From an uncultured Thermoplasmatales archaeon (GTDB taxonomy: Archaea; Thermoplasmatota; E2; DHVEG-1): DNA of 64,000 nucleotides. The DNA lies in assembly GCA_964597365.1 (NCBI GenBank), contig CAZQXW010000007.1, forward strand, positions 2,268 to 66,267, read 5' to 3'. A program made the position numbers and the translations under genes. Positions 5,140 to 18,437 of this stretch are shown one piece after another (position 1 is the first letter of the stretch; each line of letters starts with the position of its first letter). The notes beneath the pieces were generated by a model. The model saw only the letters and a list, made by a program, of their open reading frames with translations, was not told the DNA's origin and made no database searches.

Positions 5140-5548
5140 CGTGAGCCTCCGTGGTAAGGCGGTCCAAATCAAGCGCGTACTCATCATCGCTCAAGTCATC
5201 AAGCGTGACCGGACCCCAGTTCAAAAAGTCCATCGGAAAGATGTGGTGTGATAGCCACATCTCATTGTTCGAGTTCATGAAAAACGAAAGGATATCGTAT
5301 CTTCGCATTGTGCCAACACTTTGCTTGAGGTCTTCTGAAACATGCTCTTCCAACAGAGAGATCACCCATTTAGCATAGTGCTCCGTATTGCGTTCAAGAA
5401 TCTTCCTATCGCGAAGAGGAACGTTTCTGGAAAAAGAACTCTTCACCCGAGTAAAAGGTAGTTCCTTCTTAGAGAAACGAAACACAGTCAGTTGAAGCGT
5501 TTCTCCAAACCGCTCTGTCTGTATTTCCCGAACCTTATCGTGTGTCAT
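5132..5548 (-). CDS. hypothetical protein
   Basis: ATGA overlap with upstream gene. Confidence 0.6.
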   Translation of the reverse strand: MTHDKVREIQTERFGETLQLTVFRFSKKELPFTRVKSSFSRNVPLRDRKILERNTEHYAKWVISLLEEHVSEDLKQSVGTMRRYDILSFFMNSNNEMWLSHHIFPMDFLNWGPVTLDDLSDDEYALDLDRLTTEAHDG

Positions 5549-5877
5549 CGCCCTACTCTCTTCAGCTGTGCAAACGGATTACCCTCGACAGGCTTGATTG
5601 GAGCTTTCCCATGAATGACCTCAACACGATCTTCGTTTACCCCGTCCTCGATCAGGAGTACCCCTCGAAACCGATTCACGGTCACATCTTCCTTGTCCTT
5701 CAGGTCCTGTTCCATAACCCGCATGCACGCCTCACTGAGAAACTTCCGTGCGCGAGAGCCGATGATGATTCCAGTAGCCGTATGGTTTGCTTTTCGAACC
5801 GCTTCGAGTTTCTCATCGAGATACCCTATGATCTCCACCCCATCGGTGATGATCCTTCCATCCAACAGCATTGTCAT
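5545..5877 (-). CDS. hypothetical protein
   Basis: GAGGAGG SD. Confidence 0.65.
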   Translation of the reverse strand: MTMLLDGRIITDGVEIIGYLDEKLEAVRKANHTATGIIIGSRARKFLSEACMRVMEQDLKDKEDVTVNRFRGVLLIEDGVNEDRVEVIHGKAPIKPVEGNPFAQLKRVGR

Positions 5878-6099
5878 GCCTCCTCAAGAGAACGTAATCG
5901 TAAATGTCGGTGAAACCTTACAAGAAAAGACCAGAGAGCGAGGGGAGTACCGAATGTTGCCACTCGGCACTTCCCGCAACGCACGACCGCCAGTCAGTCT
6001 CTCCAAAGAAACCCTCGACCTCAAGGACACTCGCTAAGGGTCTATCGGTCTCGGGTATCTCCGGCAGCGGTACGGTCTGGCACCCCCGCTCCCCAGCAA

Positions 6100-6909
6100 T
6101 TAAAATCGTAGATAGTCTAAAGGATTCACCAGCTTCCCGTCGAGCCACACCTCATAGTGAAGATGCTGCCCTCGGGAATCTCCCGTGTTTCCCATGATGC
6201 CTATTCTGTCACCCTGCTTTATTTCTCGACCTTCATGCACGTTCTTTAGATCGGTCGATTTCAGATGGGCATACACTGTTTCAAATCCACCGGCATGTCT
6301 AATCTTCACCATGCCTCCGTACTTATCGTGGCCCTTCCATCGTACACCATCAGGAGGAACGTAATGCTCTACGACTACACCATCAGCCGGAGCAATCACA
6401 TCCGCATTCCATGTTCCGGCTATGTCAATCCCGGTATGAAATGAAATCTCCCCGGATATCGGAGATATCCTCCATCCGAATCCTGAAGTAATCCGAGTAA
6501 GCTCATTGTACACCACTGGCCATATGCTGGGCACCTGCGCAAGGAACTCTTCCCGCTCTGTAAAGTAGTTGTCCATGGCTGATAGGATTTCTCGGTAGTC
6601 TAAGGAATAGTTCATGATGGCCTGATAGACCGCCTCTACATCCGCTCCTTCTTCGGTCTCAAAGCCACCCATGGCATGCTCTTCTCGCTCATACAACACC
6701 TTCACAATGTCGGTAAGCTTCTCTCGATACAACCCCTCATTCTCATCCTGAAGGGCCTCAAGCTCTTCCAACTCAGTACTCAATTGTTTAACAGTCTGAG
6801 AGTATTCGTTCTGACGGCGATGTTCAGCTGTCGCTATGTACGTTGCCAGATCGAACACGAGCAGAATACTGAGCGCAATAGCTATCCGCGCCCGTGTCTG
6901 AAAACTCAT
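6100..6909 (-). CDS. membrane-anchored M23 family metallopeptidase (peptidoglycan endopeptidase)
   Basis: N-terminal TM, coiled coil, HTGIDI (HxxxD) and HLHYEV (HxH) motifs. Confidence 0.9.
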   Translation of the reverse strand: MSFQTRARIAIALSILLVFDLATYIATAEHRRQNEYSQTVKQLSTELEELEALQDENEGLYREKLTDIVKVLYEREEHAMGGFETEEGADVEAVYQAIMNYSLDYREILSAMDNYFTEREEFLAQVPSIWPVVYNELTRITSGFGWRISPISGEISFHTGIDIAGTWNADVIAPADGVVVEHYVPPDGVRWKGHDKYGGMVKIRHAGGFETVYAHLKSTDLKNVHEGREIKQGDRIGIMGNTGDSRGQHLHYEVWLDGKLVNPLDYLRF

Positions 6910-7046
6910 GAACCCCTCCTAAAACAGAAAGGGGCAGGCAGACTGAACTTTACGGAGGTCTGCTATGCTCGAAACCACGAACAAACAGAAGCCTACCTGC
7001 CCCCGATAGTACATAATCGTATTGTACTACGAAACCTTACAGATAA

Positions 7047-7077
7047 AAAAAGACCCCTGCCGGGTGCAGGGGTCTCT
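7047..7077 (-). terminator. intrinsic terminator after HTH gene
   Basis: AGACCCCTGC-ACCCG-GCAGGGGTCT followed by T-run on minus strand. Confidence 0.8.
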
Positions 7078-7078
7078 C

Positions 7079-7348
7079 TTAACTTCTTGGCGTTGCATCA
7101 TCATTGTAGAGAGGGCCAAGCTCCAGTTCATCCCGGTCCTCGCCCTCCTCTACATACTCTTTCACCAACCGAGGTCCACTGGACCTCTTCCGTCTGATCT
7201 CCCTGAGATCATCGAGAGTGAACATCCTCGGCGTACCCGGTCCTCCGGGCTGGGAACCAATTCCATACTTGATGGCATAAACCACCATGGTATTCTGCTT
7301 GACTCCCAGCGCCCGAGCACCGGTCCTTGTACTGTAGAGTTTACTCAT
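7079..7348 (-). CDS. MerR/excisionase-like HTH DNA-binding protein
   Basis: YSTRTGARALGVKQNTMVVYAIKYGIG...PRMFTLDDLREI winged-HTH pattern. Confidence 0.65.
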   Translation of the reverse strand: MSKLYSTRTGARALGVKQNTMVVYAIKYGIGSQPGGPGTPRMFTLDDLREIRRKRSSGPRLVKEYVEEGEDRDELELGPLYNDDATPRS

Positions 7349-7484
7349 TGCTCAGGATCGCGGGCTTTAGCTTACGCTTAGCTCTCGCGTACTCCTCGAA
7401 CTTGATCTCTCCAGCACGGAGACGCCGCTTGAGGTCCTTCCACTGTTGCAACGCCTCTTCCTTACTGATCATCTTCTTTGCCAT
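7341..7484 (-). CDS. small basic hypothetical protein (47 aa, not in ORF track)
   Basis: GGAGG SD, MAKKMISKEEALQQWKDLKRRL...; fills the gap between two genes. Confidence 0.55.
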   Translation of the reverse strand: MAKKMISKEEALQQWKDLKRRLRAGEIKFEEYARAKRKLKPAILSNE

Positions 7485-8005
7485 GCGTCCTCCTCCGGGT
7501 CTTCTACCCGTCCTTTCGCAAGAGTCTTTCCTCTCTCACGAAGCTCTTCCTTACGTTCCGGCGAGAGTGTAGGACTCTGTCGGAACTTCACCCCATGTTC
7601 ACGGTATGCCTGTCGAAGCATCCGACCGGCTTCTTTCCGCTTAGGGTGCCATCGATCCATGAGTTGGGCGAACAGTCTCGCCCACTCCCTGCCATGCGCA
7701 GCGCTGTTAGGCGGCTGCAACGCATGAGCGATCTCGTGAAGCACCACAGTATACGTCCGTGCCCACTTCGGAAGATTTAACGCACGGGGTCCTCCCCGAG
7801 CTATCCGCGTACCTCTTCCATCCTTGATCCTCGGTGCCTCTTCAACACGAGCAAGTCCACGCTTCCAACACCATCGCCACACTTCGTCGACGAAATGGTT
7901 TACAGCGTGCATAGACCCATCCCCTACCGTGTCGTTTACGATCCATGGTAGGGATCGCTCCGCAGCATACGCCTTACTTCTTTGGCTGTCTCTCGGCCGT
8001 TTCAC
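7469..8005 (-). CDS. SprT-like zinc metalloprotease domain protein
   Basis: VVLHEIAH (HExxH) plus AAHGREW third-ligand motif. Confidence 0.75.
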   Translation of the reverse strand: MKRPRDSQRSKAYAAERSLPWIVNDTVGDGSMHAVNHFVDEVWRWCWKRGLARVEEAPRIKDGRGTRIARGGPRALNLPKWARTYTVVLHEIAHALQPPNSAAHGREWARLFAQLMDRWHPKRKEAGRMLRQAYREHGVKFRQSPTLSPERKEELRERGKTLAKGRVEDPEEDAWQRR

Positions 8006-8382
8006 ACAGACCTCCGTGCAGCCTTTCGCATAGCATCCGCAGCGTTACGTGCAAGCTGCTTTTCGAGAACCTTCTTGATCGTACGGATGTCTTTCTTCTG
8101 GCCGTCGACCATCACCACAGACCGGTAGATTACGTGTGCCTTACCGTCTCTGCTCTCATGAGCCTCTTCGAACCGAAGCCGCTGCTCCCACGTAATCTGT
8201 TGGTCTCCCGTGTCTATAAACACAGGAGGACGGATGTGCTTCTCGATCAAGGCCGACCGCGCATTCTGATCTGAAGGGCAGCGCCAACGCACATACGCAT
8301 ATCTACACTTCTCGTGGTGCTCCAAGCGCTCCTCAAGTGCGTCCACTACCTCGTCTCCGACGATCCGCATAAACGCTTCCAT
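8002..8382 (-). CDS. hypothetical protein
   Basis: Start follows junction element with ACGGAGG SD. Confidence 0.7.
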   Translation of the reverse strand: MEAFMRIVGDEVVDALEERLEHHEKCRYAYVRWRCPSDQNARSALIEKHIRPPVFIDTGDQQITWEQRLRFEEAHESRDGKAHVIYRSVVMVDGQKKDIRTIKKVLEKQLARNAADAMRKAARRSV

Positions 8383-8453
8383 ACAAACCTCCGTTGGGAT
8401 CGGTTATCCCGCAGGGAACACGGCTTTCCATGTTCCCCACGCGAGACCGATTA
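8383..8453 (-). repeat. intergenic RNA-structure element, family I copy 1
   Basis: UAAUCGGU-CUCGCGUG-GGGAACAUGG-AAAG-CCGUGUUCCC-UGC-GGGAU-AACCG-AUCCC-AACGGAGGUUUGU-AUG. Confidence 0.9.
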
Positions 8454-8963
8454 CTCTCCTTCGTATTCGGCCATCTGAAGCTCCTCCAGCTTCCCCTGAA
8501 GCCAGTCAGTGAACTCTTGAGGGATATTCCCCTCCTCGGGAACCTCGGGGCCTTCATAGTCATCGAGATCAACATCATCCAAAGCGTCTCTAAACGTTTC
8601 AGCTTCATCGACTCGACTCTGAAGCAACTCCCCGGTAGGTCCTTCCTGAAGACCTTCCGGCATGTTTCCCAGATTCTCCTCAGCCTCTCCAGAGAGTTCC
8701 TCGACCTCGCCGATTGCATCCTCGACCATACCCTTCAGGGTCTCAGCGTCACGCTCCCCTTCAGCAGAGAAGTCGTAGGTGAACCGTTCGTTGATCTCTG
8801 CCATCCGTGAAAGGAAGTCAGAATTGATCGTCTGGCTTGGCCGGGGGCGGGTCTTGCTGTAATGCTTACCGCCATACCGGAACTTCCACCAGTAGTATGA
8901 CTCTCCCTTCTTGGCTACCGGGTTATCCTTCCGTGCAGCCTTCACGAAATACACTCTTGCCAT
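8451..8963 (-). CDS. conserved phage hypothetical protein
   Basis: MARVYFVKAARKDNPVAKKGESYYWWKFRYGGK N-terminus resembles a recurrent phage family; acidic coiled-coil C-terminus. Confidence 0.75.
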   Translation of the reverse strand: MARVYFVKAARKDNPVAKKGESYYWWKFRYGGKHYSKTRPRPSQTINSDFLSRMAEINERFTYDFSAEGERDAETLKGMVEDAIGEVEELSGEAEENLGNMPEGLQEGPTGELLQSRVDEAETFRDALDDVDLDDYEGPEVPEEGNIPQEFTDWLQGKLEELQMAEYEGE

Positions 8964-9033
8964 AACAAACCTCCTCGGCTCAATCAGCCGCGTCAGACCG
9001 GGGAATATTCCCCGGTCTGCCGTAGGTGATTCA
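8964..9033 (-). repeat. intergenic two-hairpin junction element (divergent)
   Basis: 12-bp stem CAGACCGGGGAA/TTCCCCGGTCTG, then CGGCU/AGCCG hairpin, then AGGAGG SD. Confidence 0.75.
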
Positions 9034-9351
9034 GCTGAGGTCTCTAATCGCTTTGTTGATATACGACTGAAGCATCTGCTCAGCGTACTGCTGAGCCTCG
9101 GTCTCATCATCGAATATCCACGCACTCTTGATGACCTCATGGTTGGGGTTGCAATACCGGCACATCACCACAGCCGCATAACAACCATCTTTCGGATTCC
9201 GATTCGTCTCTGGCTTGTACCTCCGACGAATCTCGTTGGCGATCACCGCTTCACGCATGGTGTCCTCACCAACATCGTCGATCAGCTGATCCGGGACCGC
9301 CATCTCAGCCAGTCCCGACATCAGTTGTCTCAATCTCTCTCCGGGGTCCAT
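9031..9351 (-). CDS. hypothetical protein
   Basis: Packed ORF. Confidence 0.6.
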   Translation of the reverse strand: MDPGERLRQLMSGLAEMAVPDQLIDDVGEDTMREAVIANEIRRRYKPETNRNPKDGCYAAVVMCRYCNPNHEVIKSAWIFDDETEAQQYAEQMLQSYINKAIRDLS

Positions 9352-9352
9352 G

Positions 9353-10033
9353 TCATTCCTCCATAGGCATAGCTACCACATGCTTCGCCTCAGACAGTCC
9401 TTTGGCGTAGCACTCTTCAAACACGCACAGGTCGGTGCCCGTTTCCCCTACAAGAATCCTCTTCGGCTTCAGGATCGCCAGATACGCCCCATCGAATACG
9501 ACCGTGATGCGAACCTTCGAGACATCTGCCTCACCGTAGTTCAGCGACATCTCGGCGGTATGGTTTTGGTCTCGGGCATGGATTCCTTCCGGGGATATCT
9601 TAACCAGAGTATTACCAAGCTTCTTTCCATCGAACGCATCCAGATACCGATAGAACTCCTCCGGTATCTCCACAACACGTTCTCCAGAAGGTCGTTTTCT
9701 CAGCACGTTCTCGATGTTCGGATAGGTAACCTCAGCAGGCTCCAACGTCTTTACATCGACCGCTTCCGGCCGCACATCCACAGCATCGACCTCGCTGATC
9801 AACACATGAGCGTTGGTGTAGCACCGCTTCCCACCTTTGATCGCAATCACGTCCGTGAACTCACGAGAAGTTCGACTAACCCTCATAAGCCGTCGGGCGA
9901 GCTTCGTGAATGAATCAGCCTTCGGCTTAGATGGTCGTTTTTCCTCTTTGGCACATTCGTGGCATAGCACCCGCCCATCAGCGGCACGAACCTCGAATCC
10001 TCCTGTGTCCTCATGACACTTGTCACAAATCAT
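9353..10033 (-). CDS. Zn-finger protein with possible beta-clamp-like C-terminal domain
   Basis: CDKC/CHEC N-terminus; YPNIENVL, VVFDGAYL and VVAMPM motifs reminiscent of DnaN domains. Confidence 0.45.
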   Translation of the reverse strand: MICDKCHEDTGGFEVRAADGRVLCHECAKEEKRPSKPKADSFTKLARRLMRVSRTSREFTDVIAIKGGKRCYTNAHVLISEVDAVDVRPEAVDVKTLEPAEVTYPNIENVLRKRPSGERVVEIPEEFYRYLDAFDGKKLGNTLVKISPEGIHARDQNHTAEMSLNYGEADVSKVRITVVFDGAYLAILKPKRILVGETGTDLCVFEECYAKGLSEAKHVVAMPMEE

Positions 10034-10153
10034 AGCATCACCTCCGTTCTGCTGTTTCGGACTAACCGTCCGCGAATGCCCTCCGTAGAGGGCACCCGTA
10101 GAGAGTCAGCGAATAGAACCCCTATCCACCTCAATAGTCTGAGGTACAACCTA
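10034..10153 (-). repeat. intergenic multi-hairpin junction element (divergent)
   Basis: GUGCCCUC-UACG-GAGGGCAU, CGGAC/GUCCG hairpin, AACGGAGG SD. Confidence 0.75.
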
Positions 10154-10351
10154 CTGCACATCGAAGTGCTCGAAGACCATATCGATCAGATGGCTCCGAT
10201 CATTGCACATAGCCTCGCTCAGAAACGCATCAACGGTCTCTTTTGGCCATCCTGCTTTGCGGGCAGCCCTGCGACATACCGCCAAGATAGCCATGGAGTT
10301 TCCTCCGGGACCCTCAAAGTCCAGTACAACGCTTGGCTTCTCTACCATCAT
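10151..10351 (-). CDS. conserved small phage protein
   Basis: GPGGNSMAILAVCRRAARKAGW...DRSHLI resembles a common small phage family. Confidence 0.7.
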   Translation of the reverse strand: MMVEKPSVVLDFEGPGGNSMAILAVCRRAARKAGWPKETVDAFLSEAMCNDRSHLIDMVFEHFDVQ

Positions 10352-10656
10352 CGACCTCCTTTGATCTTATCGATCAGAGCATTTCTCTCTTGCTCTACGA
10401 TACTCCCCGGATCACCACCGAACTTCTCGACCTCATACCAGAGAGCATCCCGATCATACGTGAGATACAGGTGTTCCGGGAGATTCCCTTCTGCATCTCT
10501 TGCGTTCCTTCTCAGCCACCGCCGTAACACTATACGCTCGGCAGCCTGTATCCGCTCGGCGTATCTCCTTGCGAATCGTCTCATCGTGTCACTCACAGCA
10601 AACCTCCCAATGAGCACCCGACCCGAAAGTCGGATGCTCCGTGTGAGGGTGCTCAT
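10348..10656 (-). CDS. hypothetical protein
   Basis: ATGA overlaps on both sides. Confidence 0.6.
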   Translation of the reverse strand: MSTLTRSIRLSGRVLIGRFAVSDTMRRFARRYAERIQAAERIVLRRWLRRNARDAEGNLPEHLYLTYDRDALWYEVEKFGGDPGSIVEQERNALIDKIKGGR

Positions 10657-11822
10657 TCAGAGAGAACCAGAACCTCACCAAAGGGAGGACGGAACTCTCG
10701 GGAACCATAGCCGCGCATCGGCTTCTGAACCCAGAGCACAGGGTAAGGCGGCGCATCAGGGAAGTCGTCACACATCCCATCGGTGAAGTACACCATGCAC
10801 CTCGGAGCTTCGCCCCGATCTGCAAGGTACGTAAACGGGGGAACGAAACTCGTACCGCCGCCACCATACGCCTTGAGGGATACTCGATCCCCAGCAGGAA
10901 ACTCATCTACATGATCAATCTCATGATCACAGTAGATCACCGTGCAGTCAGCCCGGTAGTCTTCGAGGATCGAATTGATCTCAGAAGCGAACTCGTTCAG
11001 CTGGCTCTGACGTATCGACCCGCTGGTATCTACCGCCGCCACTACTTGGCCCAACTCGTTGCTATACAGCGACGGAAGGTACAGTCCCTGACCGATGTAT
11101 CGTCGGTTAGGACGACTCCAAGAGAAGTCGTTCTTCGCGGATGAATCCACGAACCTTCGGAGAATCTCTCTCCAGTCAAGCTTTGGTTCCAGTATCTCCT
11201 TCACAATTCGTTCCAGAGAACCGGGGAGATTGCCTGCGACCTTGGCTTGCTGTGCAGCCTGAGCCATGGCAACCTTCCACTCCTGCGACTGCTGACGCTG
11301 CTCTGCCTCGGACGCTTGGGACTCTCCGTCCTCGCCCTTGGCATCACGAACTTCTCCGCACCCACCGGGATCAGGGTTTTCGTCCCCTTCTCCCTCACCT
11401 TCACCGCCGCTGCCTCCCTGCTGATCCTGATCAGGTAACAGAGAGTACACTTGTTCTGCGGTCATGTTGGCATACGATGAATCGATCAGACCACCATCCG
11501 GCAGGCTCATACCTGCATCTCGAATGATTAGATTGATCACATAGTCAGCCGCCATGTTCCACTTTTTTCTATCGCGGTTGCCTCGGCGGGTATGATGCTG
11601 AAGTCCACAGTGGAGAACCTCATGACAGATCAGACCTTTGAGTTGATCCATCGAGACCGTTCCGATGAACTGCGGGTTGTACCCGAGCGTCTTCCCATCG
11701 GTCCACGCAGTCTTACAACTGGTGTCCTCGACAGATATCAGCCGCAGTGCCAGCGATCCGAAGAACGGCTGGTCGAGTACAAGACCTGCTCTACCCTTTG
11801 CGAACAATTTTGTTGCACTCAT
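10653..11822 (-). CDS. metallopeptidase-like + VWA domain protein (DUF2201 type)
   Basis: TAWTDG...ICHEVLH (HExxH), WNMAADYVIN, acidic linker, VAAVDTSGSI MIDAS, GGGGTSF, YFTDG. Confidence 0.9.
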   Translation of the reverse strand: MSATKLFAKGRAGLVLDQPFFGSLALRLISVEDTSCKTAWTDGKTLGYNPQFIGTVSMDQLKGLICHEVLHCGLQHHTRRGNRDRKKWNMAADYVINLIIRDAGMSLPDGGLIDSSYANMTAEQVYSLLPDQDQQGGSGGEGEGEGDENPDPGGCGEVRDAKGEDGESQASEAEQRQQSQEWKVAMAQAAQQAKVAGNLPGSLERIVKEILEPKLDWREILRRFVDSSAKNDFSWSRPNRRYIGQGLYLPSLYSNELGQVVAAVDTSGSIRQSQLNEFASEINSILEDYRADCTVIYCDHEIDHVDEFPAGDRVSLKAYGGGGTSFVPPFTYLADRGEAPRCMVYFTDGMCDDFPDAPPYPVLWVQKPMRGYGSREFRPPFGEVLVLSE

Positions 11823-11899
11823 TGCAAACCTCCGTAGATGGAAGTGTCCATCCATCGAGGGCACTCTTTCGAATGCCCTCTGTGCATGGTCCGTGCTTA
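11823..11899 (-). repeat. intergenic two-hairpin junction element (divergent)
   Basis: GAGGGCAUUC-GAAA-GAGUGCCCUC, GAUGGA/UCCAUC, UACGGAGG SD. Confidence 0.75.
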
Positions 11900-12742
11900 C
11901 TTACCGAGGTAGCCTGCCATCTTATCCAAGATGGCCTTAGCATCCTTGGCAGTTTGCGCACGTACTTCCGGTTCGGTGCGAAGCACCTCCGGCTGTACTT
12001 TGGCGAGCTTCTGGGAGACCTCCTTGCGGAGATTCTCCAGATCGGGATCGTTGGCAACGTTGAGCTTGGGCAATAGATTGACCATCTCAACAGCGTTCTC
12101 CACGAGGGAGTCGCGGAAGATTTTGTCAGGCTCCGAAAGGGTCTCAGCGAATCGCTTGACCACGTCAGCAACCCGGACATAAAGGTCCTGAGTCGCCTCC
12201 TGCATTCGGCGCTCGATACTCTCTTCCAGTGCCTTGGCGATCTTCTTCTGGTCTCGCTGCTGGAGCTTGACCCTGAAGTCTTCCTTGTGCGGCACGGGTT
12301 CGATGCTTGTGTCGAAGCCAAACTTTCGTTTGATCTCTTGCGTGTTCGGGTAGTCGGCGGGGTTGAACATTCCATTCAGAGCCTCTTTCGCTCGCTCACG
12401 GTACTCAGGGTAGTTCTGTATGAACTCCTCAACCGCCTGATCGAACCGCTCTTTCAGCTGGCGCATCTCTTTCGAGTACTCCATGAACTCAGCGGCCGGG
12501 AGAAGCCGTCCACCGAAATCGTCCCACGGGAGCGTATGCTCATAGTGGTACGAACGGGCCGCCGTAGCAGCACGGTCGATGGTCTGTATGGCTTCCTTAG
12601 CGATCAGTACCTTGTTGAAGCGACCGGCATCGTCTCGCGCTCCAAGATCACGAATGACCTTGCGCGTGACGCCTTTGTCGAACTTTCTCGCAGTCCACTT
12701 TGATATGGACACTCGAACGATCATTGCCTCTTCATGTAGCAT
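11897..12742 (-). CDS. DUF3150-like protein (MoxR/VWA-associated)
   Basis: AMIVRVSISKWTARKFD...TLPWDDFGGRLLP...YP; position between MoxR and VWA genes. Confidence 0.75.
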   Translation of the reverse strand: MLHEEAMIVRVSISKWTARKFDKGVTRKVIRDLGARDDAGRFNKVLIAKEAIQTIDRAATAARSYHYEHTLPWDDFGGRLLPAAEFMEYSKEMRQLKERFDQAVEEFIQNYPEYRERAKEALNGMFNPADYPNTQEIKRKFGFDTSIEPVPHKEDFRVKLQQRDQKKIAKALEESIERRMQEATQDLYVRVADVVKRFAETLSEPDKIFRDSLVENAVEMVNLLPKLNVANDPDLENLRKEVSQKLAKVQPEVLRTEPEVRAQTAKDAKAILDKMAGYLGK

Positions 12743-12839
12743 CGCAGTACCTCCGTTGGGGCGGGTTTGGTATCGGTTGCCCGTCCCCCTCCCCCCGCTC
12801 CCCCGAAGGGGAGTGAGGGGTAGGTGAGGAACAACCTCA
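12743..12839 (-). repeat. intergenic RNA-structure element, family II copy 1
   Basis: CCUCACCUACCCC...C-UUCG-G hairpin, GGGACGGG/CCCGCCCC, AACGGAGG SD. Confidence 0.8.
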
Positions 12840-13820
12840 GATGAGAACGTCTGAGTGATCTGCTGACCACTTGATGAACGCACGAGTGTTGACAAGTGAA
12901 TCGTCTCGCTCGATTGCATCACGAACCAGCAGCACCGAGAACTCCGGGTCAAGACGATTTGAGTACTTGACGATGTTATCGAAGTTCTGGTCAGTTGCCT
13001 TTTGCGAGAGCGCTCCGCATATCGCATACTTGGTCGCGGGATCACTGGGCACCTCTGCTTTGTCAGGGGCCATGATGATCATATCAGGATCGGGCAAGCT
13101 CCTGAAAATCTTCAGGAAGCCGATCAACTCAGCCGCCGCGCCTTCACCAACGATCCCTGAGACGAGTTCATACTCAATCTCATCCCCAGCAACCGCGAGC
13201 ACATCGCTCACGAACTGCCACGACCGGGGAGTCGGGAACGCCTTCTCGTTCTTCTGCGGGTCAAACGCGTGGAGCAGGTTGGGGCGATACCGCAGAAACG
13301 CGATAAGCTCCGTCTGGATTCCAGCGTTCAACGCCCACCTGACCCAATCCTCCAAATCAACATCAACGTTGAGATGGATGAACCGGTTCGCGAGTGGCGA
13401 TGGCATCCTCGACGTGACAGCCCGGTCAGTCTCACGGTTCCCTGCCGCGATTACAATCGCGTTCTTGGGAAGCTCGTACTCACCGATCTTGCGATCCAGC
13501 ACCAGCTGGTAACAGGCAGCCTGCACCAGCGGAGGGGCCGCGTTCAACTCGTCGAGGAAGAGGATGTACTTGCCCTTGCCTTTCGGCAGGAAGGAAGGCG
13601 GTGCCCACCTCGTCTCACCGTCCTCGGTCACCGTGGGAATACCACGGAGATCAACCGGGTCCAGCAGGACAGCACGCACATCGATCAACGTATAGCCGAG
13701 CGTCTTTGCGATCTGTCGGACCACGTCCGACTTGCCGATACCGGGAGGACCCCACAGGAACCCCGGACGACCAGCCTTGATCAGCGCTTTGAGCGCCTCT
13801 GCTACTATTGACAGTTTCAT
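12837..13820 (-). CDS. MoxR-like AAA+ ATPase
   Basis: GPPGIGKS Walker A, LFLDELNAA Walker B, IAAGNR sensor, SPLANRF arginine finger. Confidence 0.9.
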   Translation of the reverse strand: MKLSIVAEALKALIKAGRPGFLWGPPGIGKSDVVRQIAKTLGYTLIDVRAVLLDPVDLRGIPTVTEDGETRWAPPSFLPKGKGKYILFLDELNAAPPLVQAACYQLVLDRKIGEYELPKNAIVIAAGNRETDRAVTSRMPSPLANRFIHLNVDVDLEDWVRWALNAGIQTELIAFLRYRPNLLHAFDPQKNEKAFPTPRSWQFVSDVLAVAGDEIEYELVSGIVGEGAAAELIGFLKIFRSLPDPDMIIMAPDKAEVPSDPATKYAICGALSQKATDQNFDNIVKYSNRLDPEFSVLLVRDAIERDDSLVNTRAFIKWSADHSDVLI

Positions 13821-13903
13821 CTGCAAACCTCCGTGGGATGGATTGGTTTTGGTTGACCATCCCCCTCCCCGCCCTCTATGGAGGGCGGGGTAGGTGAGGG
13901 TCA
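13821..13903 (-). repeat. intergenic RNA-structure element, family II copy 2
   Basis: CCCUCACCUA-CCCCGCCCUC-CAUA-GAGGGCGGGG, GGGAUGG/CCAUCCC, ACGGAGG SD. Confidence 0.8.
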
Positions 13904-14110
13904 CTCTGAATCGATGCTCTTGAGTATCTCACCCTCCGGGGAGAGGTACTCATTATCAATGAGCGACTTGGCCATACGCCCATAGCTGCCTTGCAGCCGC
14001 CATGCCGTACCGGTCTTCACGAGTTCGCTGAATAGCTCCAACGCATCCTCATCGCTCATCTCACCAGACTCATAGTCGATAATCTTATCGACGATCTGTG
14101 TTCCATCCAT
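13901..14110 (-). CDS. conserved small phage protein
   Basis: IVDKIIDYESGEM...ELFSELVKTGTAWRLQGSYGRMA resembles a widespread phage family. Confidence 0.75.
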   Translation of the reverse strand: MDGTQIVDKIIDYESGEMSDEDALELFSELVKTGTAWRLQGSYGRMAKSLIDNEYLSPEGEILKSIDSE

Positions 14111-14174
14111 AACAAACCTCCGTTGGGATTGGTTATCCCAGAAGCGCCCCCGTAGGGACGCCCCCGCGAGATCA
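14111..14174 (-). repeat. family I element copy 2
   Basis: UGAU-CUCGCGGG-GCGUCCC-UACG-GGGGCGC-UUC-UGGGAU-AACCA-AUCCCA-ACGGAGGUUUGUU-AUG. Confidence 0.9.
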
Positions 14175-14426
14175 ACCCTCTTCGTTCTTTTTGGGTCGAT
14201 TGCCAGCAAGCAACGCATCGATGTTCTCCACACCTCGAATCAGTCGATGAATAGTTTTTATGGCGTCCTCTCGTGCGTTCACAAGATCGGCCTCAGAAAC
14301 CCGCTTGTTTCCACCACGAATCGACGTAGCATAGTCACGAACGCCCTTTGTTGCCGGTAAAATAAACGTACCGTTCACATCGAACATTCGAACTTCGGGA
14401 ACCTCTATCGTAATCTTTTCTGACAT
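14172..14426 (-). CDS. hypothetical protein
   Basis: Bounded exactly by two junction elements. Confidence 0.7.
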   Translation of the reverse strand: MSEKITIEVPEVRMFDVNGTFILPATKGVRDYATSIRGGNKRVSEADLVNAREDAIKTIHRLIRGVENIDALLAGNRPKKNEEG

Positions 14427-14493
14427 AACGAACCTCCGTGGGATCGGTTATCCCGGAAGAGGCTCCGTAGAGCCTCCCCCGCGAGTCCGATCA
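14427..14493 (-). repeat. family I element copy 3
   Basis: UGAUCGGA-CUCGCGGG-GAGGCUC-UACG-GAGCCUC-UUCC-GGGAU-AACCG-AUCCC-ACGGAGGUUCGUU-AUG. Confidence 0.9.
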
Positions 14494-14700
14494 GCGGTGT
14501 CGCTTCCGGTGTACTACTACCAGTACACCCTTCGCTCGGGATTCCTTCGGGTCGGGGTCATTCACATGACCACCTTGACGGTATCCCAAAGCATAGGCTC
14601 TGGCTTCTGCCTGTCCGTGGAACTCGGAAAGGTCCCGAGGTTCTTTGTGACTGACACGATCTTCGAACCCGTCTGCGAACGCCTTGTACTCTTCTCTCAT
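14491..14700 (-). CDS. hypothetical protein
   Basis: Bounded by junction elements. Confidence 0.7.
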   Translation of the reverse strand: MREEYKAFADGFEDRVSHKEPRDLSEFHGQAEARAYALGYRQGGHVNDPDPKESRAKGVLVVVHRKRHR

Positions 14701-14767
14701 AACAAACCTCCGTGGGATTAGTTATCCCAGAAGAGGCTCCGTAGAGCCTCCCCTGTGAGACTAATCA
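14701..14767 (-). repeat. family I element copy 4
   Basis: UGAUUAGU-CUCACAGG-GAGGCUC-UACG-GAGCCUC-UUC-UGGGAU-AACUA-AUCCCA-CGGAGGUUUGUU-AUG. Confidence 0.9.
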
Positions 14768-15043
14768 TTCTTCCCAATGCCATGCTTTGAAGTAAGTCAC
14801 CTTGACTTCAGCAATGGGAGCCTCAGGCATGTTTCCAACTGCCCGAGCATAGTTGCGACTCACATCACAACCCTTGGACCGGAGAAACCGTTCCACCTTG
14901 TGGCGCTGCTCTACAGAGCTACAGTCAATGTACGCTCGAACGTCGCGGCCGTACGCTTCACAACGATCCCGCTGCACGCTCTCAGTAACGTCCATACCGA
15001 ACTCATTCAAGTAGCCTACCAACTTCTTTACGCTTACTCTCAT
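14765..15043 (-). CDS. conserved phage hypothetical protein, first gene of promoter-1 transcript
   Basis: ACGGAGG SD at MRVSVKK; VTYFKAWHWEE C-terminus. Confidence 0.7.
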   Translation of the reverse strand: MRVSVKKLVGYLNEFGMDVTESVQRDRCEAYGRDVRAYIDCSSVEQRHKVERFLRSKGCDVSRNYARAVGNMPEAPIAEVKVTYFKAWHWEE

Positions 15044-15249
15044 CACAGACCTCCGTTGCCCGTTTTGGGCGATGTCCCCACGCCGGGTGCTGACCCCGGC
15101 CAGAACCCTGCCATAGGCATTCCGGGGTAGGGGATGTTTCGTCGAGAGCCGACGGTAAGGTGCACGAGCCGGAGGTCGCCTTGGCCCACAACTCACAACG
15201 TAAGCCATGAGCAAACCCGTGCACCCAACCGCAGGCTCTCACCTGCGGG

Positions 15250-15455
15250 GAGGTATTGCATCCTTCTCTTATCCGGCGAGCATCCACGGAACTTGATAGC
15301 TCGGGGGCCGCTGGCTCCTGCCAGCATCCGCTCACTCACCTTCTTCTTTCAAAGACCATTCAGGTCTCGGGGGATTCCCTCTCCCCCTTTCCTTATATTT
15401 ATATTATATCACGATACCGTGATTATGTCAACAAGTTGTTTTTCGGGAGATAACT
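15250..15455 (-). repeat. duplicated promoter + leader block, copy 1
   Basis: Colinear similarity to 17470-17675 including GCUAUCAAGUUCC, CCGGAU and GGAUGC..UACCUCC. Confidence 0.85.
15403..15431 (-). promoter_or_regulatory. consensus sigma70 promoter P1
   Basis: TTGACA (15426-15431), 17-bp spacer, TATAAT (15403-15408); A-rich upstream element. Confidence 0.9.
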
Positions 15456-15630
15456 GTATGACGTGTTCTGTAGAAGATTGCCGGGAAGACTGTCCCGGCG
15501 CAGTCGGCATTGAGAGTCCCCTCGGGGACGCCACAGGGTGTGCCGAAATCTTGTTCCCTCCTAAACGGAGGCGGGTTGTTCAGACCCGGAATTGGGGTGG
15601 GGCAGGAGGCACGAACCCACATCCACCCTT

Positions 15631-15852
15631 TCACTTGATAATGTAGTCTACCTCCCGGTGCCCTTCACAAAGAGCGTAGAACGCCTTGCGCTCCTCACTC
15701 TCGACAGACCGGGGGATGCCTAACGCATCGGCCACGAACGTTCGGTCAATCTCCCACTGTTGCAGCTTGTCACGCCTCACTTCCGTGAGCCGTGGAGATG
15801 CAGCAGGATCAGAAAACCGAAACGCTCTGGCAACTGCTTCAATCTGTGTCAT
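15631..15852 (-). CDS. hypothetical protein
   Basis: Start follows family I element. Confidence 0.7.
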   Translation of the reverse strand: MTQIEAVARAFRFSDPAASPRLTEVRRDKLQQWEIDRTFVADALGIPRSVESEERKAFYALCEGHREVDYIIK

Positions 15853-15921
15853 AGCAAACCTCCATTCGGGATCGAGTATCCCGGAATGGGGTCCGTAGAC
15901 CCCACCCCGCGAGTTCGATCA
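15853..15921 (-). repeat. family I element copy 5
   Basis: UGAUCGAA-CUCGCGG-GUGGGGUC-UACG-GACCCCAU-UC-CGGGAU-ACUCG-AUCCCG-AAUGGAGGUUUGCU-AUG. Confidence 0.9.
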
Positions 15922-16389
15922 GACAGCCCGATATACGGACTCTCCGTTGCTAAAGGTTCCCAGCTTTCGGTACAGGTTGATACCAATACCTCTAAGCTTC
16001 TCCGCAATCTCATCCTCATGCTTGAGCGCCCATTCAGCCGCGAACTCTTCCCAGTTCCGTTTGACGGGCTCCCATGCGCTATCGGAAGGCTCCTCACAAG
16101 GAACCAAAGACAGGGAGCAGAAGCTCATGTACTCGCAGAGCACCACATCAACAATACCGTTCGACGCGATGGCGTGCTCTTCGTCATGATCAAAACCCGG
16201 ACCCCACCGATCCTCCGAGATGAAAGGATCGTCCATCGTGGAAAGCCCTCCACGAATGTTGTCAACCATGAAATCCCAATAGATTTCGGCAAGGTCTTCA
16301 AGATAATTGCCGTCTTCGTCGTACCCATCCTCATACGGAAAATGGTACGTCACTGCGGCGTTACGTGGAACCATTACTGATCTACCCAT
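15919..16389 (-). CDS. conserved phage hypothetical protein
   Basis: HAIASNGIVDVVLCEY...LGTFSNGESVY resembles a recurrent early-gene family. Confidence 0.7.
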   Translation of the reverse strand: MGRSVMVPRNAAVTYHFPYEDGYDEDGNYLEDLAEIYWDFMVDNIRGGLSTMDDPFISEDRWGPGFDHDEEHAIASNGIVDVVLCEYMSFCSLSLVPCEEPSDSAWEPVKRNWEEFAAEWALKHEDEIAEKLRGIGINLYRKLGTFSNGESVYRAV

Positions 16390-16458
16390 TGCAAACCTCC
16401 GTGGGATTAGTTATCCCGCAGGGTGCTCCGTAGAACACCCCACGCGAGACTAACCTCA
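16390..16458 (-). repeat. family I element copy 6
   Basis: UGAGGUUAGU-CUCGCGUG-GGGUGUUC-UACG-GAGCACCC-UGC-GGGAU-AACUA-AUCCC-ACGGAGGUUUGCA-AUG. Confidence 0.9.
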
Positions 16459-17097
16459 GTTCAGGATGTACCGCTCTACGCTTTTGGCGAGGTTGGGCAC
16501 ACCGTGACTACTGGGGTTCCAAGGCGCTTTCCATGTTTCGTCAGGAAGCGACTTGATGTAGTTGACCGACTCTTGAACATGCTCTTTCGAAGTGTAAGGA
16601 CCGATCCTACGAAGAGCATCGATGATCCGGCCAACCGTAGCCTTGACTTCGTCCGAGTACAGATCACTGCGAAGGACTTGCCGAAGCTCTTCCTCATACT
16701 GACGGGCAAGGATGGACCAATACCGCATCGTAAGAAGAGCCACATCCTCGGGATTGGGGATGACATAGGAGAAGCACTCACGATAATCTCGGGTGCTCGC
16801 CCGTTCCTGAAGGCGGTTGAAATCGTTGAGCGTTCGCTCATACTCCTCTCGACCGCACCCAATAACGTGCGCCCGAAGGTCCATCCAACCATCATCACTG
16901 ACTTCTCTGATCTCTCGACCAGTTCGGTGCTCGATGCCCGCAAGCTCTTCCATCTTCTCGTAGTACTTGTCTTGCAGTTCCTTCAGATCGTTGAAACTCA
17001 TCGTGCGGAGAAGCTCCACCGTACGAGCATCGTAATCATACCCCGCATATTCCCAGCGGAAGCTTTCGACAATTTCCCAAAATCTCTCTTCAGTCAT
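16456..17097 (-). CDS. DUF4240-like domain protein
   Basis: MTEERFWEIVE...SDDGWMDLRAHVIGCGREEYE. Confidence 0.65.
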   Translation of the reverse strand: MTEERFWEIVESFRWEYAGYDYDARTVELLRTMSFNDLKELQDKYYEKMEELAGIEHRTGREIREVSDDGWMDLRAHVIGCGREEYERTLNDFNRLQERASTRDYRECFSYVIPNPEDVALLTMRYWSILARQYEEELRQVLRSDLYSDEVKATVGRIIDALRRIGPYTSKEHVQESVNYIKSLPDETWKAPWNPSSHGVPNLAKSVERYILN

Positions 17098-17141
17098 AGC
17101 AACCTCCCGGTACGCTCGGATTGGTTTTAGTAGTCCGAGCG

Positions 17142-17471
17142 TCCCTTGCAGTGCACTCCGTGGGCGGGAGAGCTTGTCTCCCGCCATGGCATCAGCCAGC
17201 GCGATGTACGCTGACCTTCTTGTCGACCTCGTAATACGGAACGTCCTGTCCAGTGATCTTCGCAACCGTTCCCCGAGAAACTGCCTGAACATTTTCCCAG
17301 AAATTGTCGCACCGACGGATTTGAACATCCCACATATTGGGCTCGTCTTCACGACCCATCCATGCGGGGATTCTCACAAACCGAACCGTGTCCGAATGTT
17401 CGATAACGTCTACATAGTTTGCCATGGTGCACCTCCGTTGGGCAGTCGCCCACGCAGTGCACTCCAAGGGA
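17142..17471. repeat. 25-bp inverted repeat (23/25) flanking a single small gene
   Basis: +17142-17166 TCCCTTGCAGTGCACTCCGTGGGCG vs +17447-17471 CGCCCACGCAGTGCACTCCAAGGGA. Confidence 0.85.
17192..17425 (-). CDS. hypothetical protein, first gene of promoter-2 transcript
   Basis: UGGGC/GCCCA hairpin plus ACGGAGG SD before MANYVDV. Confidence 0.7.
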   Translation of the reverse strand: MANYVDVIEHSDTVRFVRIPAWMGREDEPNMWDVQIRRCDNFWENVQAVSRGTVAKITGQDVPYYEVDKKVSVHRAG

Positions 17472-17675
17472 GGAGGTAAGCATCCCTCTCTGATCCGGTT
17501 GGTTTCCATGGAACTTGATAGCCAAAGCCGCTCACGTCCTGCGAGCATCCACTCGCCAACCTTCCTCTTTCAAAAACCCTTGCCAATCTCAGGAGCCTTT
17601 CCTCTCCCTTGATTACATTTATATTATATCATGGTATCGTGATTGTGTCAAATTGTTGTTTTTCAGGAGATAACG
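17470..17675 (-). repeat. duplicated promoter + leader block, copy 2
   Basis: Homologous to 15250-15455. Confidence 0.85.
17623..17651 (-). promoter_or_regulatory. consensus sigma70 promoter P2
   Basis: TTGACA (17646-17651), 17-bp spacer, TATAAT (17623-17628). Confidence 0.9.
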
Positions 17676-17697
17676 TGTTTACTGAATGTTGGCTTGA

Positions 17698-17747
17698 TAA
17701 AAGAAAACCCCCGACCGGCAAAGGAGGTAGGAACGCCGGTCGGAGGG
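17698..17747 (-). terminator. intrinsic terminator insulating the early region
   Basis: CCCUCCGACCGGC / GCCGGUCGGGGG stem followed by UUUUCUUUU. Confidence 0.75.
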
Positions 17748-17828
17748 TGGGACACCGAAGGCTCGCCTGCACACATGCACACAGGAAAGCTCCCTTCTAT
17801 CTATATGGTAACACGAGAGGACCGATCC

Positions 17829-18437
17829 TCAAACACCATACGTGATACGAAAGGGCTGGACGTTCTCGCGCAACTCCCGCGTCGACAGTCGACGGTTATG
17901 ACCGCCCTTGCCATCAGGAAACCTCGCGCCCCACGGATCATTATATATCAGTTCTCGGGTTTGTGTATCGTATGCCAGCACAGCAATATAGTGCCCCGGA
18001 TTCTTGAGACACAGCTGCACCGCCCTTCCCCTATCCAGTTCCTTAACTATGCTCTCCCACTCATTCCCCCATTCAAACCTTCCCCGTACTCCAAATACGG
18101 CGTACACCCCATGAGGGTAGTATTGCGGAACTCTGTTCTCCGGCAGCATATCTACAACAGAGTTTGATCTGATCTCTCGCAAATCATCCTTGATCCGAGG
18201 ATCATTGAAGAAGTCCATCAGCACTTCCTCCGGCTGTGGTTTGAATGTTCCCGGACACGTAATATCCACACTCTTCCCCATCGCTGCCAAACAGTTCACC
18301 GCTGCCGTAGGTCCGCAGGACTCCAACCAGCTATCTCGGTCATGTCGAGTAGCTTTCAGATACGCCTCAGTTGGATTGTTCTCTTGACTGTAGTACCTAC
18401 CCCGATCATTCCAAAACCGTACACCTTTGTGTCTCAT
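17829..18437 (-). CDS. peptidase C39-like (papain fold) protein, candidate lysin
   Basis: YYSQ...SCGPTAAV (Cys), GHYIAVLAYD (His), LIYNDPWG. Confidence 0.8.
   Translation of the reverse strand: MRHKGVRFWNDRGRYYSQENNPTEAYLKATRHDRDSWLESCGPTAAVNCLAAMGKSVDITCPGTFKPQPEEVLMDFFNDPRIKDDLREIRSNSVVDMLPENRVPQYYPHGVYAVFGVRGRFEWGNEWESIVKELDRGRAVQLCLKNPGHYIAVLAYDTQTRELIYNDPWGARFPDGKGGHNRRLSTRELRENVQPFRITYGV

Follow-up and report, generated by a model that had tools for sequence, protein, structure and literature searches.

Six copies of a short intercistronic element, here called Family I, lie on the minus strand of a 64,000-nt stretch of DNA (hereafter the window, at its full length; contig CAZQXW010000007.1, positions 2,268 to 66,267) that was deposited with assembly GCA_964597365.1 of an uncultured Thermoplasmatales archaeon. 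Each copy is 65–73 nt long and fills the gap between the stop codon of one gene and the start codon of the next. Family I is a well-defined new RNA motif, whose regulatory role is probably modest. In the RNA the parts follow one another in the order stop codon, variable arm of 5–7 nt, (A/U)CUC(G/A)C(G/A), hairpin 1, hairpin 2, Shine-Dalgarno (SD) sequence and AUG. Hairpin 1 is G+C-rich and has 12–14 bp, with a cUACGg loop in five of the window copies and an AAAG loop in the sixth. The 3' part consists of GGGAU, a variable 5-nt loop, AUCCC, 2–4 nt, GGAGGU, 6–7 nt and AUG, and 61–68 nt separate the stop from the next start; a perfect GGAGGU at 6–7 nt from the AUG suits independent initiation. 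Pairwise identity among the window copies is 62–85%, and their parts are reassorted, with hairpin 1 common to the copies at 14427 and 14701 and the outer arms common to those at 14701 and 16390. The bases GGGAUAA and CUC of an internal loop described below, together with AUCCC, are invariant in all six copies, while the neighbouring stems vary.

The contig that carries these copies (C7, 67 kb) has a G+C fraction of 0.51 within a 2.3-Mb assembly whose other large contigs have 28–35% G+C (about 33%); contig C13 has 0.47. It encodes a large terminase, a DNA polymerase, helicases, a tail sheath and baseplate proteins, with nearly all genes on the minus strand, which is the mRNA sense and the strand on which all structures were read. 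Because of these phage genes and the differing G+C content, and because the phage uses bacterial sigma-70 promoters and GGAGG SD sequences, the contig is that of a myovirus, almost certainly mis-binned with an unrelated genome. Its terminase is less than 25% identical to those of the nearest cultured phages.

Table 1. Family I copies, promoters and Family II junctions; coordinates are those of the window unless another locus is named.
Feature	Coordinates	Strand	Details
Copy 8383	8380..8453	-	73.8 bits with the covariance model; UAA stop, outer arm AUCGGU, CUC, 14-bp hairpin 1 with AAAG loop, GGGAU-AACCG-AUCCC, AAC, GGAGGU, AUG
Copy 14111	14108..14180	-	81.8 bits; outer stem GGGUUG/CAAUCC, formed in part by the last codon and the UGA stop
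Copy 14427 (exemplar)	14424..14493	-	95.6 bits; stop 14491-14493; 5' outer arm GAUCGG 14487-14492; CUC 14483-14485; hairpin 1 (12 bp, cUACGg loop) 14454-14481; GGGAU 14450-14454; 3' outer arm CCGAUC 14442-14447; AUCCC 14440-14444; SD 14433-14437; AUG 14424-14426
Copy 14701	14698..14767	-	95.3 bits; outer stem GAUUAGU/ACUAAUC; hairpin 1 that of copy 14427 except G14-C39 to A-U
Copy 15853	15850..15921	-	87.1 bits; outer stem GAUCGA/UCGAUC; hairpin 2 longer by a C-G pair
Copy 16390	16387..16458	-	86 bits; outer stem GGUUAGU/ACUAAUC, beginning directly after the UGA stop
Sigma-70-type promoter	15403..15431	-	TTGACA, 17 nt, TATAAT, with TG; perfect match; operon of copies 14701, 14427 and 14111
Second sigma-70-type promoter	17623..17651	-	perfect; heads the operon of copies 16390 and 15853
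Family II junctions (two, around one gene)	about 13821-13900 and 12743-12836 (12743..13900)	-	repeat D14; CCUCACCUA, hairpin 1, AGG, constitutive hairpin 2 (GGGAUGG/CCAUCCC or GGGGACGGG/CCCGCCCC), A(A)C, GGAGG; no outer stem
Family II in relatives	L068 (G002) about 1323-1395, 2180-2253, 2617-2690; L041 13477-13550		

A covariance model recovers the six window copies with 74–96 bits (E-values 1e-15 to 1e-21), and over the 2.3-Mb assembly it finds no copies beyond these six, none on the opposite strand and none within genes. Related uncultivated phages were found by terminase-based searches, and in them a covariance model (R1) built on the long fold described below identified three more full-length members: G002a and G002b (IMGVR_UViG_3300020048_000074) and G009a (IMGVR_UViG_3300037796_000222). 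The comparative set is thus nine copies from three uncultivated phages. The model gave no match in 893 kb of unrelated phage loci, none in 19 loci picked up by a motif scan and none in 80 loci around homologues of an AAA+ ATPase; two IMG/VR motif scans for more members returned only chance matches or the two relatives already in hand. A TerL search of metagenome contigs yielded one further relative, with variant junctions, and the same search in species genomes yielded no further relative. Rfam gave no match at gathering thresholds over the whole window, and a permissive Rfam search (E up to 5) of positions 8000–18000 gave a single irrelevant match that overlaps no Family I copy. The motif is new, being absent from Rfam and from the descriptions found in the literature searched.

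Two folds compete for this spacer. Fold A is one long irregular hairpin of about 21–24 helical steps that reaches from the stop codon to 4–5 nt before the SD. It comprises an outer stem of 6–9 bp that includes bases of the stop codon, a UC/GA step, and the 12–14-bp hairpin 1 with its UNCG or GNRA loop. In the exemplar, copy 14427, G2–G7 pair with C47–C52 (including the GA of the UGA stop), U10 pairs with A43 and C11 with G42; a G12·G41 mismatch follows, and then C13–C24 paired with G29–G40. An earlier, sequence-only reading of this DNA had placed a CUCG/CGGG helix here, a register that the alignment does not bear out: all three relatives have A at position 12 and keep C39, as would fit a mismatch there and not a pair. 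Fold A is irregular at two places, the 1x1 mismatch just described, which is conserved, and an asymmetric internal loop with A,C on one side and U,A,A on the other; both lie at a fixed distance from the stable tetraloop.

That reading had correctly recognised a long hairpin built on stop-proximal bases. At -30 to -37 kcal/mol, fold A is the RNAfold minimum-energy structure in five of the six window copies when these are cut from stop to AUG, and in all six when copy 14111 is extended by the three bases that precede its stop. Copy 14111, which had been thought to lack the outer pairing, has it in register, built from its last sense codon and stop. The outer-arm pairs are UCGG/CCGA, UUAGU/ACUAA and UCGA/UCGA, as had been listed, together with GGUUG/CAAUC, and the series is extended by UUUCACG/CGUGAAG in a related phage. 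Across the nine-copy alignment 98.3% of cells pair in fold A, compared with 34–61% when the partners are slid by 1–3 columns; double-sided changes affect 13 of 20 pairs, including five of the six in the outer helix, and the observed measures were reached in none of 500 shuffles, all these figures being somewhat inflated because the alignment was fitted to fold A. The stop codon forms part of the 5' base of fold A in eight of the nine copies, in which the outer arm overlaps it or directly follows it. The G·U pairs occur on the sense strand only and the loops are stable UNCG or GNRA tetraloops, and these features show Family I to be a structure at the level of RNA and not a DNA palindrome.

Fold B is the local pairing of GGGAU with AUCCC (hairpin 2), which is present in all six window copies, with the U-A and C-G extensions that had been noted in individual copies. 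It shares the bases G42, A43 and A50–C52 with fold A, and for this reason the two folds are mutually exclusive, as had been proposed; a pseudoknot holding both together was rejected by inference, with 0 nt between the outer 3' arm and the 3' arm of hairpin 2. Since the five GGGAU/AUCCC pairs are invariant in the window, the window alone neither supports nor refutes fold B. The relatives do vary, with GGGAAA/UUUCCC in G002b and GGGAC/GUUCC in G009a, such that the fifth pair is U-A, A-U or C-G. These changes were counted by hand, as loop indels misalign hairpin 2 and made a column-wise count of pairs fail. Constitutive hairpins occupy the place of hairpin 2 in sister junctions, and the two compensatory events together with this family-wide architecture give fold B moderate support.

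In naked RNA, fold A is better than any structure containing hairpin 2 by 2.1–6.2 kcal/mol in the window copies, with a probability of hairpin 2 of at most 0.03, and by only 0.3–1.4 kcal/mol in the three relatives, with probabilities of 0.10–0.66. A ribosome terminating at the upstream gene was represented by a mask that forces the upstream open reading frame, the stop codon and the next 10 nt to be unpaired, an extent that approximates the occlusion by a terminating ribosome as estimated from established footprint and helicase data. Masking raises the probability of hairpin 2 to 0.95–1.0 in all six window copies, in agreement with the earlier suggestion that a terminating ribosome favours fold B. 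The ribosome-driven refolding from fold A to hairpin 2 is thus predicted to be thermodynamically sound and hard to avoid.

What the refolding does for the SD is another matter. It had been supposed that fold A hides the SD, by a weak pairing of a freed UCC with its GGA, and that fold B exposes it. The SD is, however, unpaired in the fold A minimum-energy structure of every window copy, and the UCC:GGA contact, a hairpin of 2–3 bp with a loop of 3–4 nt, has a computed energy of +0.2 to -0.7 kcal/mol. Averaged over the six copies, and with 25 nt of downstream coding sequence in the calculation, SD accessibility is about 0.35 for naked and about 0.36 for masked RNA, with no consistent direction of change. 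Nor is fold B sterically better for the SD, because its helix adjoins the SD at 2–3 nt, compared with 4–5 nt in fold A. In naked RNA the proposed polarity is in fact reversed. When hairpin 2 is forced in the naked element, the freed 5' pyrimidine strand (..UCUC) pairs with GAGGUU (probability 0.48–1.0), and SD accessibility falls from 0.67–0.89 to 0.09–0.54. In these calculations fold A appears as the SD-open state of naked RNA and fold B as the SD-closed one, fold B being predicted to leave the SD open only when the 5' strand is inside a ribosome. The 5' strand is no more complementary to the SD region than shuffled strands are, and usually exceeds them in complementarity to the hairpin 2 region. 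A role of CUC as an anti-SD is accordingly speculative, and as a selected anti-SD it was rejected. The earlier observations thus hold in part, for the two exclusive folds, the outer covariation, the stop within fold A and the flip on masking, and fail for the details of copy 14111 and of the CUCG register and for SD exposure, which formed the core of the proposed switch.

A ribosome-operated coupling switch of the RNA-unfolding type, in which fold A impairs the ribosome-binding site until termination brings about fold B and exposes the SD, is on this evidence distinctly unlikely. It would account for two exclusive folds that each have comparative support, for a stop codon in or at the 5' arm of eight of the nine copies, for the flip of the ensemble on masking and for the apparent selection on hairpin 2, and the nearly isoenergetic folds of the relatives would suit it well; there are precedents at spacings of +52 to +62 nt, in rpmI-rplT and in genes VII-IX of phage f1 (PMC12548453). 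One copy would fit it directly. In G002b, alone among the nine, the minimum-energy structure sequesters the SD by pairing it with the GAUCUC that follows the stop, a pairing that nothing but a terminating ribosome would undo, and this copy could be a genuine coupling device. Against these points, the SD of the six window copies is free in fold A and its accessibility is unmoved by the mask, the UCC:GGA pairing has essentially no energetic value, fold B brings no steric gain, and the SD is both strong and optimally spaced. In the relatives, moreover, the homologous downstream gene has junctions without an outer stem.

A rather unlikely, more elaborate version is a three-state ribosome-gated junction, in which the post-stop strand lies on a decoy, on the SD or in the ribosome. 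On the decoy, formed by GGGA and the hairpin 2 loop, it would give fold A with the SD open; on the SD it would give a three-way junction with hairpin 2 and a closed SD; and in a terminating ribosome it would leave hairpin 2 formed and the SD open. The free-energy gap between the folds is as small as 0.3 kcal/mol in one relative and as large as 6.2 kcal/mol in one window copy. If the three-state model were true, the size of this gap, tuned at each junction separately, would determine how strongly the translation of each orphan gene, or the RNase III sensitivity of the long duplex, depends on ribosome traffic over the upstream neighbour, and the cassettes would be a natural swappable set of translational couplers and insulators.

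The geometry of the element also raises the question of proximity reinitiation, a shunting-like process in which the hairpins bring stop and SD within a few nanometres and a terminating 30S or 70S is handed across the helix base. We know of no bacterial precedent for this, and consider it highly improbable. In every copy the helix has the stop at its 5' base and the SD 4–5 nt from its 3' base, and with a ribosome on the stop, hairpin 1 would begin about 9 nt downstream, contiguous with hairpin 2 and with the SD 2–4 nt further on. The outer stem, however, is necessarily melted while the ribosome is on the stop, the strong SD makes de novo initiation sufficient, and structure after the stop lowered coupling in a library screen (PMC12548453).

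The setting of the copies within the phage genome offers a different view of them. They lie inside two operons driven by sigma-70-type promoters (Table 1); a promoter scan found no promoter-like site within any Family I copy, nor is there a terminator-like site at any of them, with no U tract after hairpin 1 or hairpin 2. An intrinsic terminator or attenuator and an internal promoter were rejected on this basis. The genes beside the copies are small, unrelated to one another and mostly without a family assignment. Between conserved genes, the homologues of 17829–18437 and 12837–13820, most genes are not common to the relatives, and the region appears from this comparison to be hyper-variable. 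The sole small gene of the region that is shared with relatives, 15919–16389, is preceded in the window by a Family I element, whereas its homologue in G002 and in JFJP01037483 is preceded by a Family II element that has no outer stem, and junction families are therefore interchangeable before one and the same gene.

Family II is one of the sister junctions, many of which are found in the same phages and in JFJP01037483, with hairpin 1, an adjacent hairpin 2 and an SD but without the outer pairing; the helices of these families have only about 13–15 bp. Its general layout is CCACCUA, hairpin 1 with a GNRA or UNCG loop, AGG, hairpin 2 (GGGxx..xxCCC) and A(C/U)GGAGG. The conserved 5' CACCUA of Family II resembles the 3' end of 16S rRNA, and either the AGG linker or the SD can serve as its pairing partner. 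The ribosome-binding-site consensus of the related phage G009 (L070, about 5359–9166) is CACACUUUGGAGGUGUG, which can form a 5-bp hairpin with GGAG in its loop; it sits 12–16 nt after hairpin 2, and the distance from hairpin 2 to the SD is thus not conserved across the phage group.

Such shuffling could in principle be all that there is to explain, if the repeats were homology patches for exchanging orphan-gene cassettes and their RNA folds had no function. This purely DNA-level linker finds a precedent in the PeSL cassettes (PMC2839356) and would agree with the hyper-variable region between conserved genes, the mosaic reassortment of arms and hairpin 1, and the exchange of junction families before a homologous gene. 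It is nevertheless the least probable of the readings considered, in that compensatory double changes, sense-strand G·U pairs and UNCG or GNRA tetraloops show selection on the RNA structure, and copies that are 62–85% identical offer poor homology for recombination. Nor does Family I resemble a mobile palindrome of the REP or MITE type, the copies being confined to the coding strand, extending exactly from stop to start and fused to the SD.

We tentatively favour the view that Family I represents one form of a modular, structured RNA connector between cistrons (stop, hairpins, strong SD, AUG), although our confidence in it falls somewhat short of even. With the same reserve, such connectors would link small orphan genes, in this phage and in its relatives, within an early region that is hyper-variable and under the control of host-type promoters. 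Set against an on/off coupling switch, a structured connector is probably the better description of Family I. The resting spacer is predicted to be one continuous irregular hairpin that leaves almost no single-stranded RNA between the cistrons and yet keeps the SD free, fold A parking the pyrimidine-rich post-stop strand (..UCUC) on GGGA and the hairpin 2 loop, away from the SD. A ribosome terminating upstream would open the outer and middle stems, and the released 3' strand would collapse into the local hairpin 2 with the SD still free, a tidying of the 3' strand while the ribosome holds the 5' strand. The two folds may in this way keep the downstream ribosome-binding site usable with or without upstream translation, which is insulation rather than switching, and may also shield the untranslated spacer from nucleases. 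The connector would supply a standard ribosome-binding site to shuffled orphan genes, and at the level of DNA the conserved cassette would probably serve as a standard linker for gene exchange.

This connector model draws on the covariation, sense-strand G·U pairs and tetraloops, and on the restriction of all copies to the coding strand between stop and start. It also draws on the free SD of fold A, on an SD accessibility that the mask leaves unchanged, and on the capture of the SD by the 5' strand when hairpin 2 is forced in naked RNA. It is consistent with their position inside two sigma-70-driven operons without promoters or terminators of their own, with a hairpin 1-hairpin 2-SD plan that is common to related phages and to other junctions in the window, and with orphan genes between conserved flanks, interchangeable junction families and reassorted arms and hairpin 1. 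A library screen in which structure directly after the stop codon correlated negatively with coupling efficiency (reviewed in PMC12548453) also fits insulation better than coupling. Several points weigh on the other side. Insulation and nuclease protection are things that we infer, and the energetics are nearest-neighbour predictions on naked RNA. Because the complementarity of the 5' strand to the SD is not above that of shuffled strands, the parking of an anti-SD may be a side effect rather than a selected function. In the three relatives the two folds are almost equal in energy, and G002b, with its SD predicted to be sequestered, has the look of a real switch. Selection for fold B is implied by the compensatory changes in hairpin 2, and a passive connector has no obvious need of such selection. 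The comparison, finally, takes in only nine copies in three phages.

The main rival to the connector, although still an unlikely one, is a processing signal for the double-strand-specific RNase III, in which the long helix is cut, such that hairpin 1 remains as a stabiliser at the 3' end of the upstream message and the downstream message keeps a short leader; translated mRNA could then be protected from cleavage where upstream translation opens the helix. The kind of helix that characterises such signals, irregular, some two turns long (20 bp or more) and with an internal loop, is found in Family I, whose duplex of about 21–24 steps has its 1x1 mismatch, asymmetric internal loop and tetraloop at fixed distances. 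The copies are repeated between early genes on polycistronic transcripts from the host polymerase, with two sigma-70 promoters upstream, and the internal-loop bases GGGAUAA and CUC are invariant in the window where the stems are variable. RNase III targets are on record as encoded by the Bacillus phage SP82 (PMC4838370, refs 19-20). The sister junction families, however, have helices of only about 13–15 bp; the compensatory changes in hairpin 2 would be left unexplained; and Family I has no sequence or Rfam relation to any known site.

The same invariant bases could instead mark the site of an RNA-binding regulator, a repressor of the CsrA or RegA kind that binds at the GGGAUAA/CUC internal loop or at hairpin 2 beside the SD. 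We consider this very unlikely. GGGAUA, CUC and AUCCC are invariant in the six window copies where the adjacent stems are free to vary, and the element has two motifs with GGA, the SD and another about 18 nt from it. But GGA lies outside a hairpin loop in both folds, the hairpin 2 loop is variable and covaries with the 5' arm, and the motif differs in the relatives (GGGAAA and GGGACU); the invariance is equally well explained by bases that serve two pairings. A CsrA circuit in particular was rejected, the upstream GGA being paired in both folds and no CsrA gene being found in the assembly, the phage contig included. Two further identities were rejected by inspection: a K-turn at the internal loop, where the 3-nt bulge has the wrong strand polarity relative to GA, and an integron attC-like site, where the R'/R'' consensus does not fit.

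Other observations concern single copies or their surroundings. Three copies, the one at 15850–15921, G002b and G009a, have a 66-nt spacer that is open and in frame with both neighbouring genes, and the two proteins would be fused if the UGA were read through. At this composition, however, chance is quite likely to produce 21 codons in a row without a stop, and the remaining copies are either closed or out of frame. Stop readthrough stimulated by hairpin 1 was rejected, the downstream AUG being in frame in only four of the nine copies, one of which has an in-frame UAG. The sequence GGGATACTCGATCCC, the reverse complement of hairpin 2 of copy 15853, occurs once in the window on the plus strand (10877–10891), inside a minus-strand gene and without hairpin 1 or an SD, and is probably a chance match. 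Each of the two promoters is followed by a non-coding leader of about 350–500 nt, promoter and leader together lying at 15044–15431 and 17107–17651 (minus strand). Repeats D6 and D13 reflect a duplication of the promoters and of parts of the leaders. A stretch of 70 nt at the promoter matches, with 80% identity, a place in Bacillus phage G that has no annotation.

How does Family I compare with known intercistronic elements? The RNase III sites R0.3–R1.3 of T7 early mRNA are conserved intercistronic hairpins. Like these and the signals of SP82, Family I is a repeated, conserved hairpin of about 60–70 nt with an internal loop, placed between early genes on transcripts of the host RNA polymerase and directly upstream of the next ribosome-binding site. 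Unlike them, it has a lower stem of only 6–9 bp, sister families without a long duplex and no relation in sequence, and its cleavage is hypothetical; an alternative local hairpin kept by compensatory change is a feature of Family I that is not described for the T7 and SP82 sites. If the copies were RNase III sites or plain stabilisers, they would extend the T7/SP82 theme to a new phage group.

The reviewed coupling elements that act by RNA unfolding include E. coli rpmI-rplT (+52 nt), the hairpin between phage f1 genes VII and IX, and the MS2 coat-lysis junction (PMC12548453). Family I shares with them a 5' strand in the path or footprint of the upstream ribosome, an intercistronic gap of tens of nucleotides and alternative pairings that depend on the ribosome. 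In those elements the downstream ribosome-binding site is sequestered without upstream translation, whereas the SD of Family I is unpaired at rest in all six window copies, and only the relative G002b shows a comparable sequestration.

The PeSL (promoter-early stem-loop) cassettes of T4-type phages combine a strong sigma-70 promoter with a terminator-like stem-loop and are proposed recombination linkers (PMC2839356). They resemble Family I as repeated stop-to-start cassettes that end in an SD and a start codon and accompany orphan genes in hyperplastic early regions, whereas Family I has neither promoter nor terminator, lies inside operons and covaries at the level of RNA. The start-associated sequences (SAS) and extended SAS (ESAS) of Cluster K mycobacteriophages are conserved, SD-containing and found before the starts of some non-structural genes, often after an imperfect inverted repeat with a variable spacer, and are suspected of a translational role (PMC3203893). 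The likeness here is an asymmetric conserved motif that includes the SD and lies just upstream of gene starts. Family I differs from them in sequence, phage group and host: the 13-bp SAS motif GGGATAGGAGCCC, which lies 3–8 bp before the start codon, has no match in the window with up to two mismatches, and a stop-anchored outer pairing and alternative folds are traits of Family I that are not described for SAS/ESAS.

As a kind of element, then, Family I belongs with the known repeated intercistronic hairpin-plus-SD elements of phages, and such connectors between orphan early genes keep recurring in uncultivated phages. If the balance of its folds sets the dependence of a gene on its upstream neighbour, the copies would be natural tunable parts for coupling or insulation, relevant to the expression logic of phages and to synthetic operons. 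Within this company Family I is set apart by an outer stem, anchored at the stop codon, in competition with a conserved local hairpin; the comparative data presented here show both competing pairings conserved and the stop codon built into one of them.

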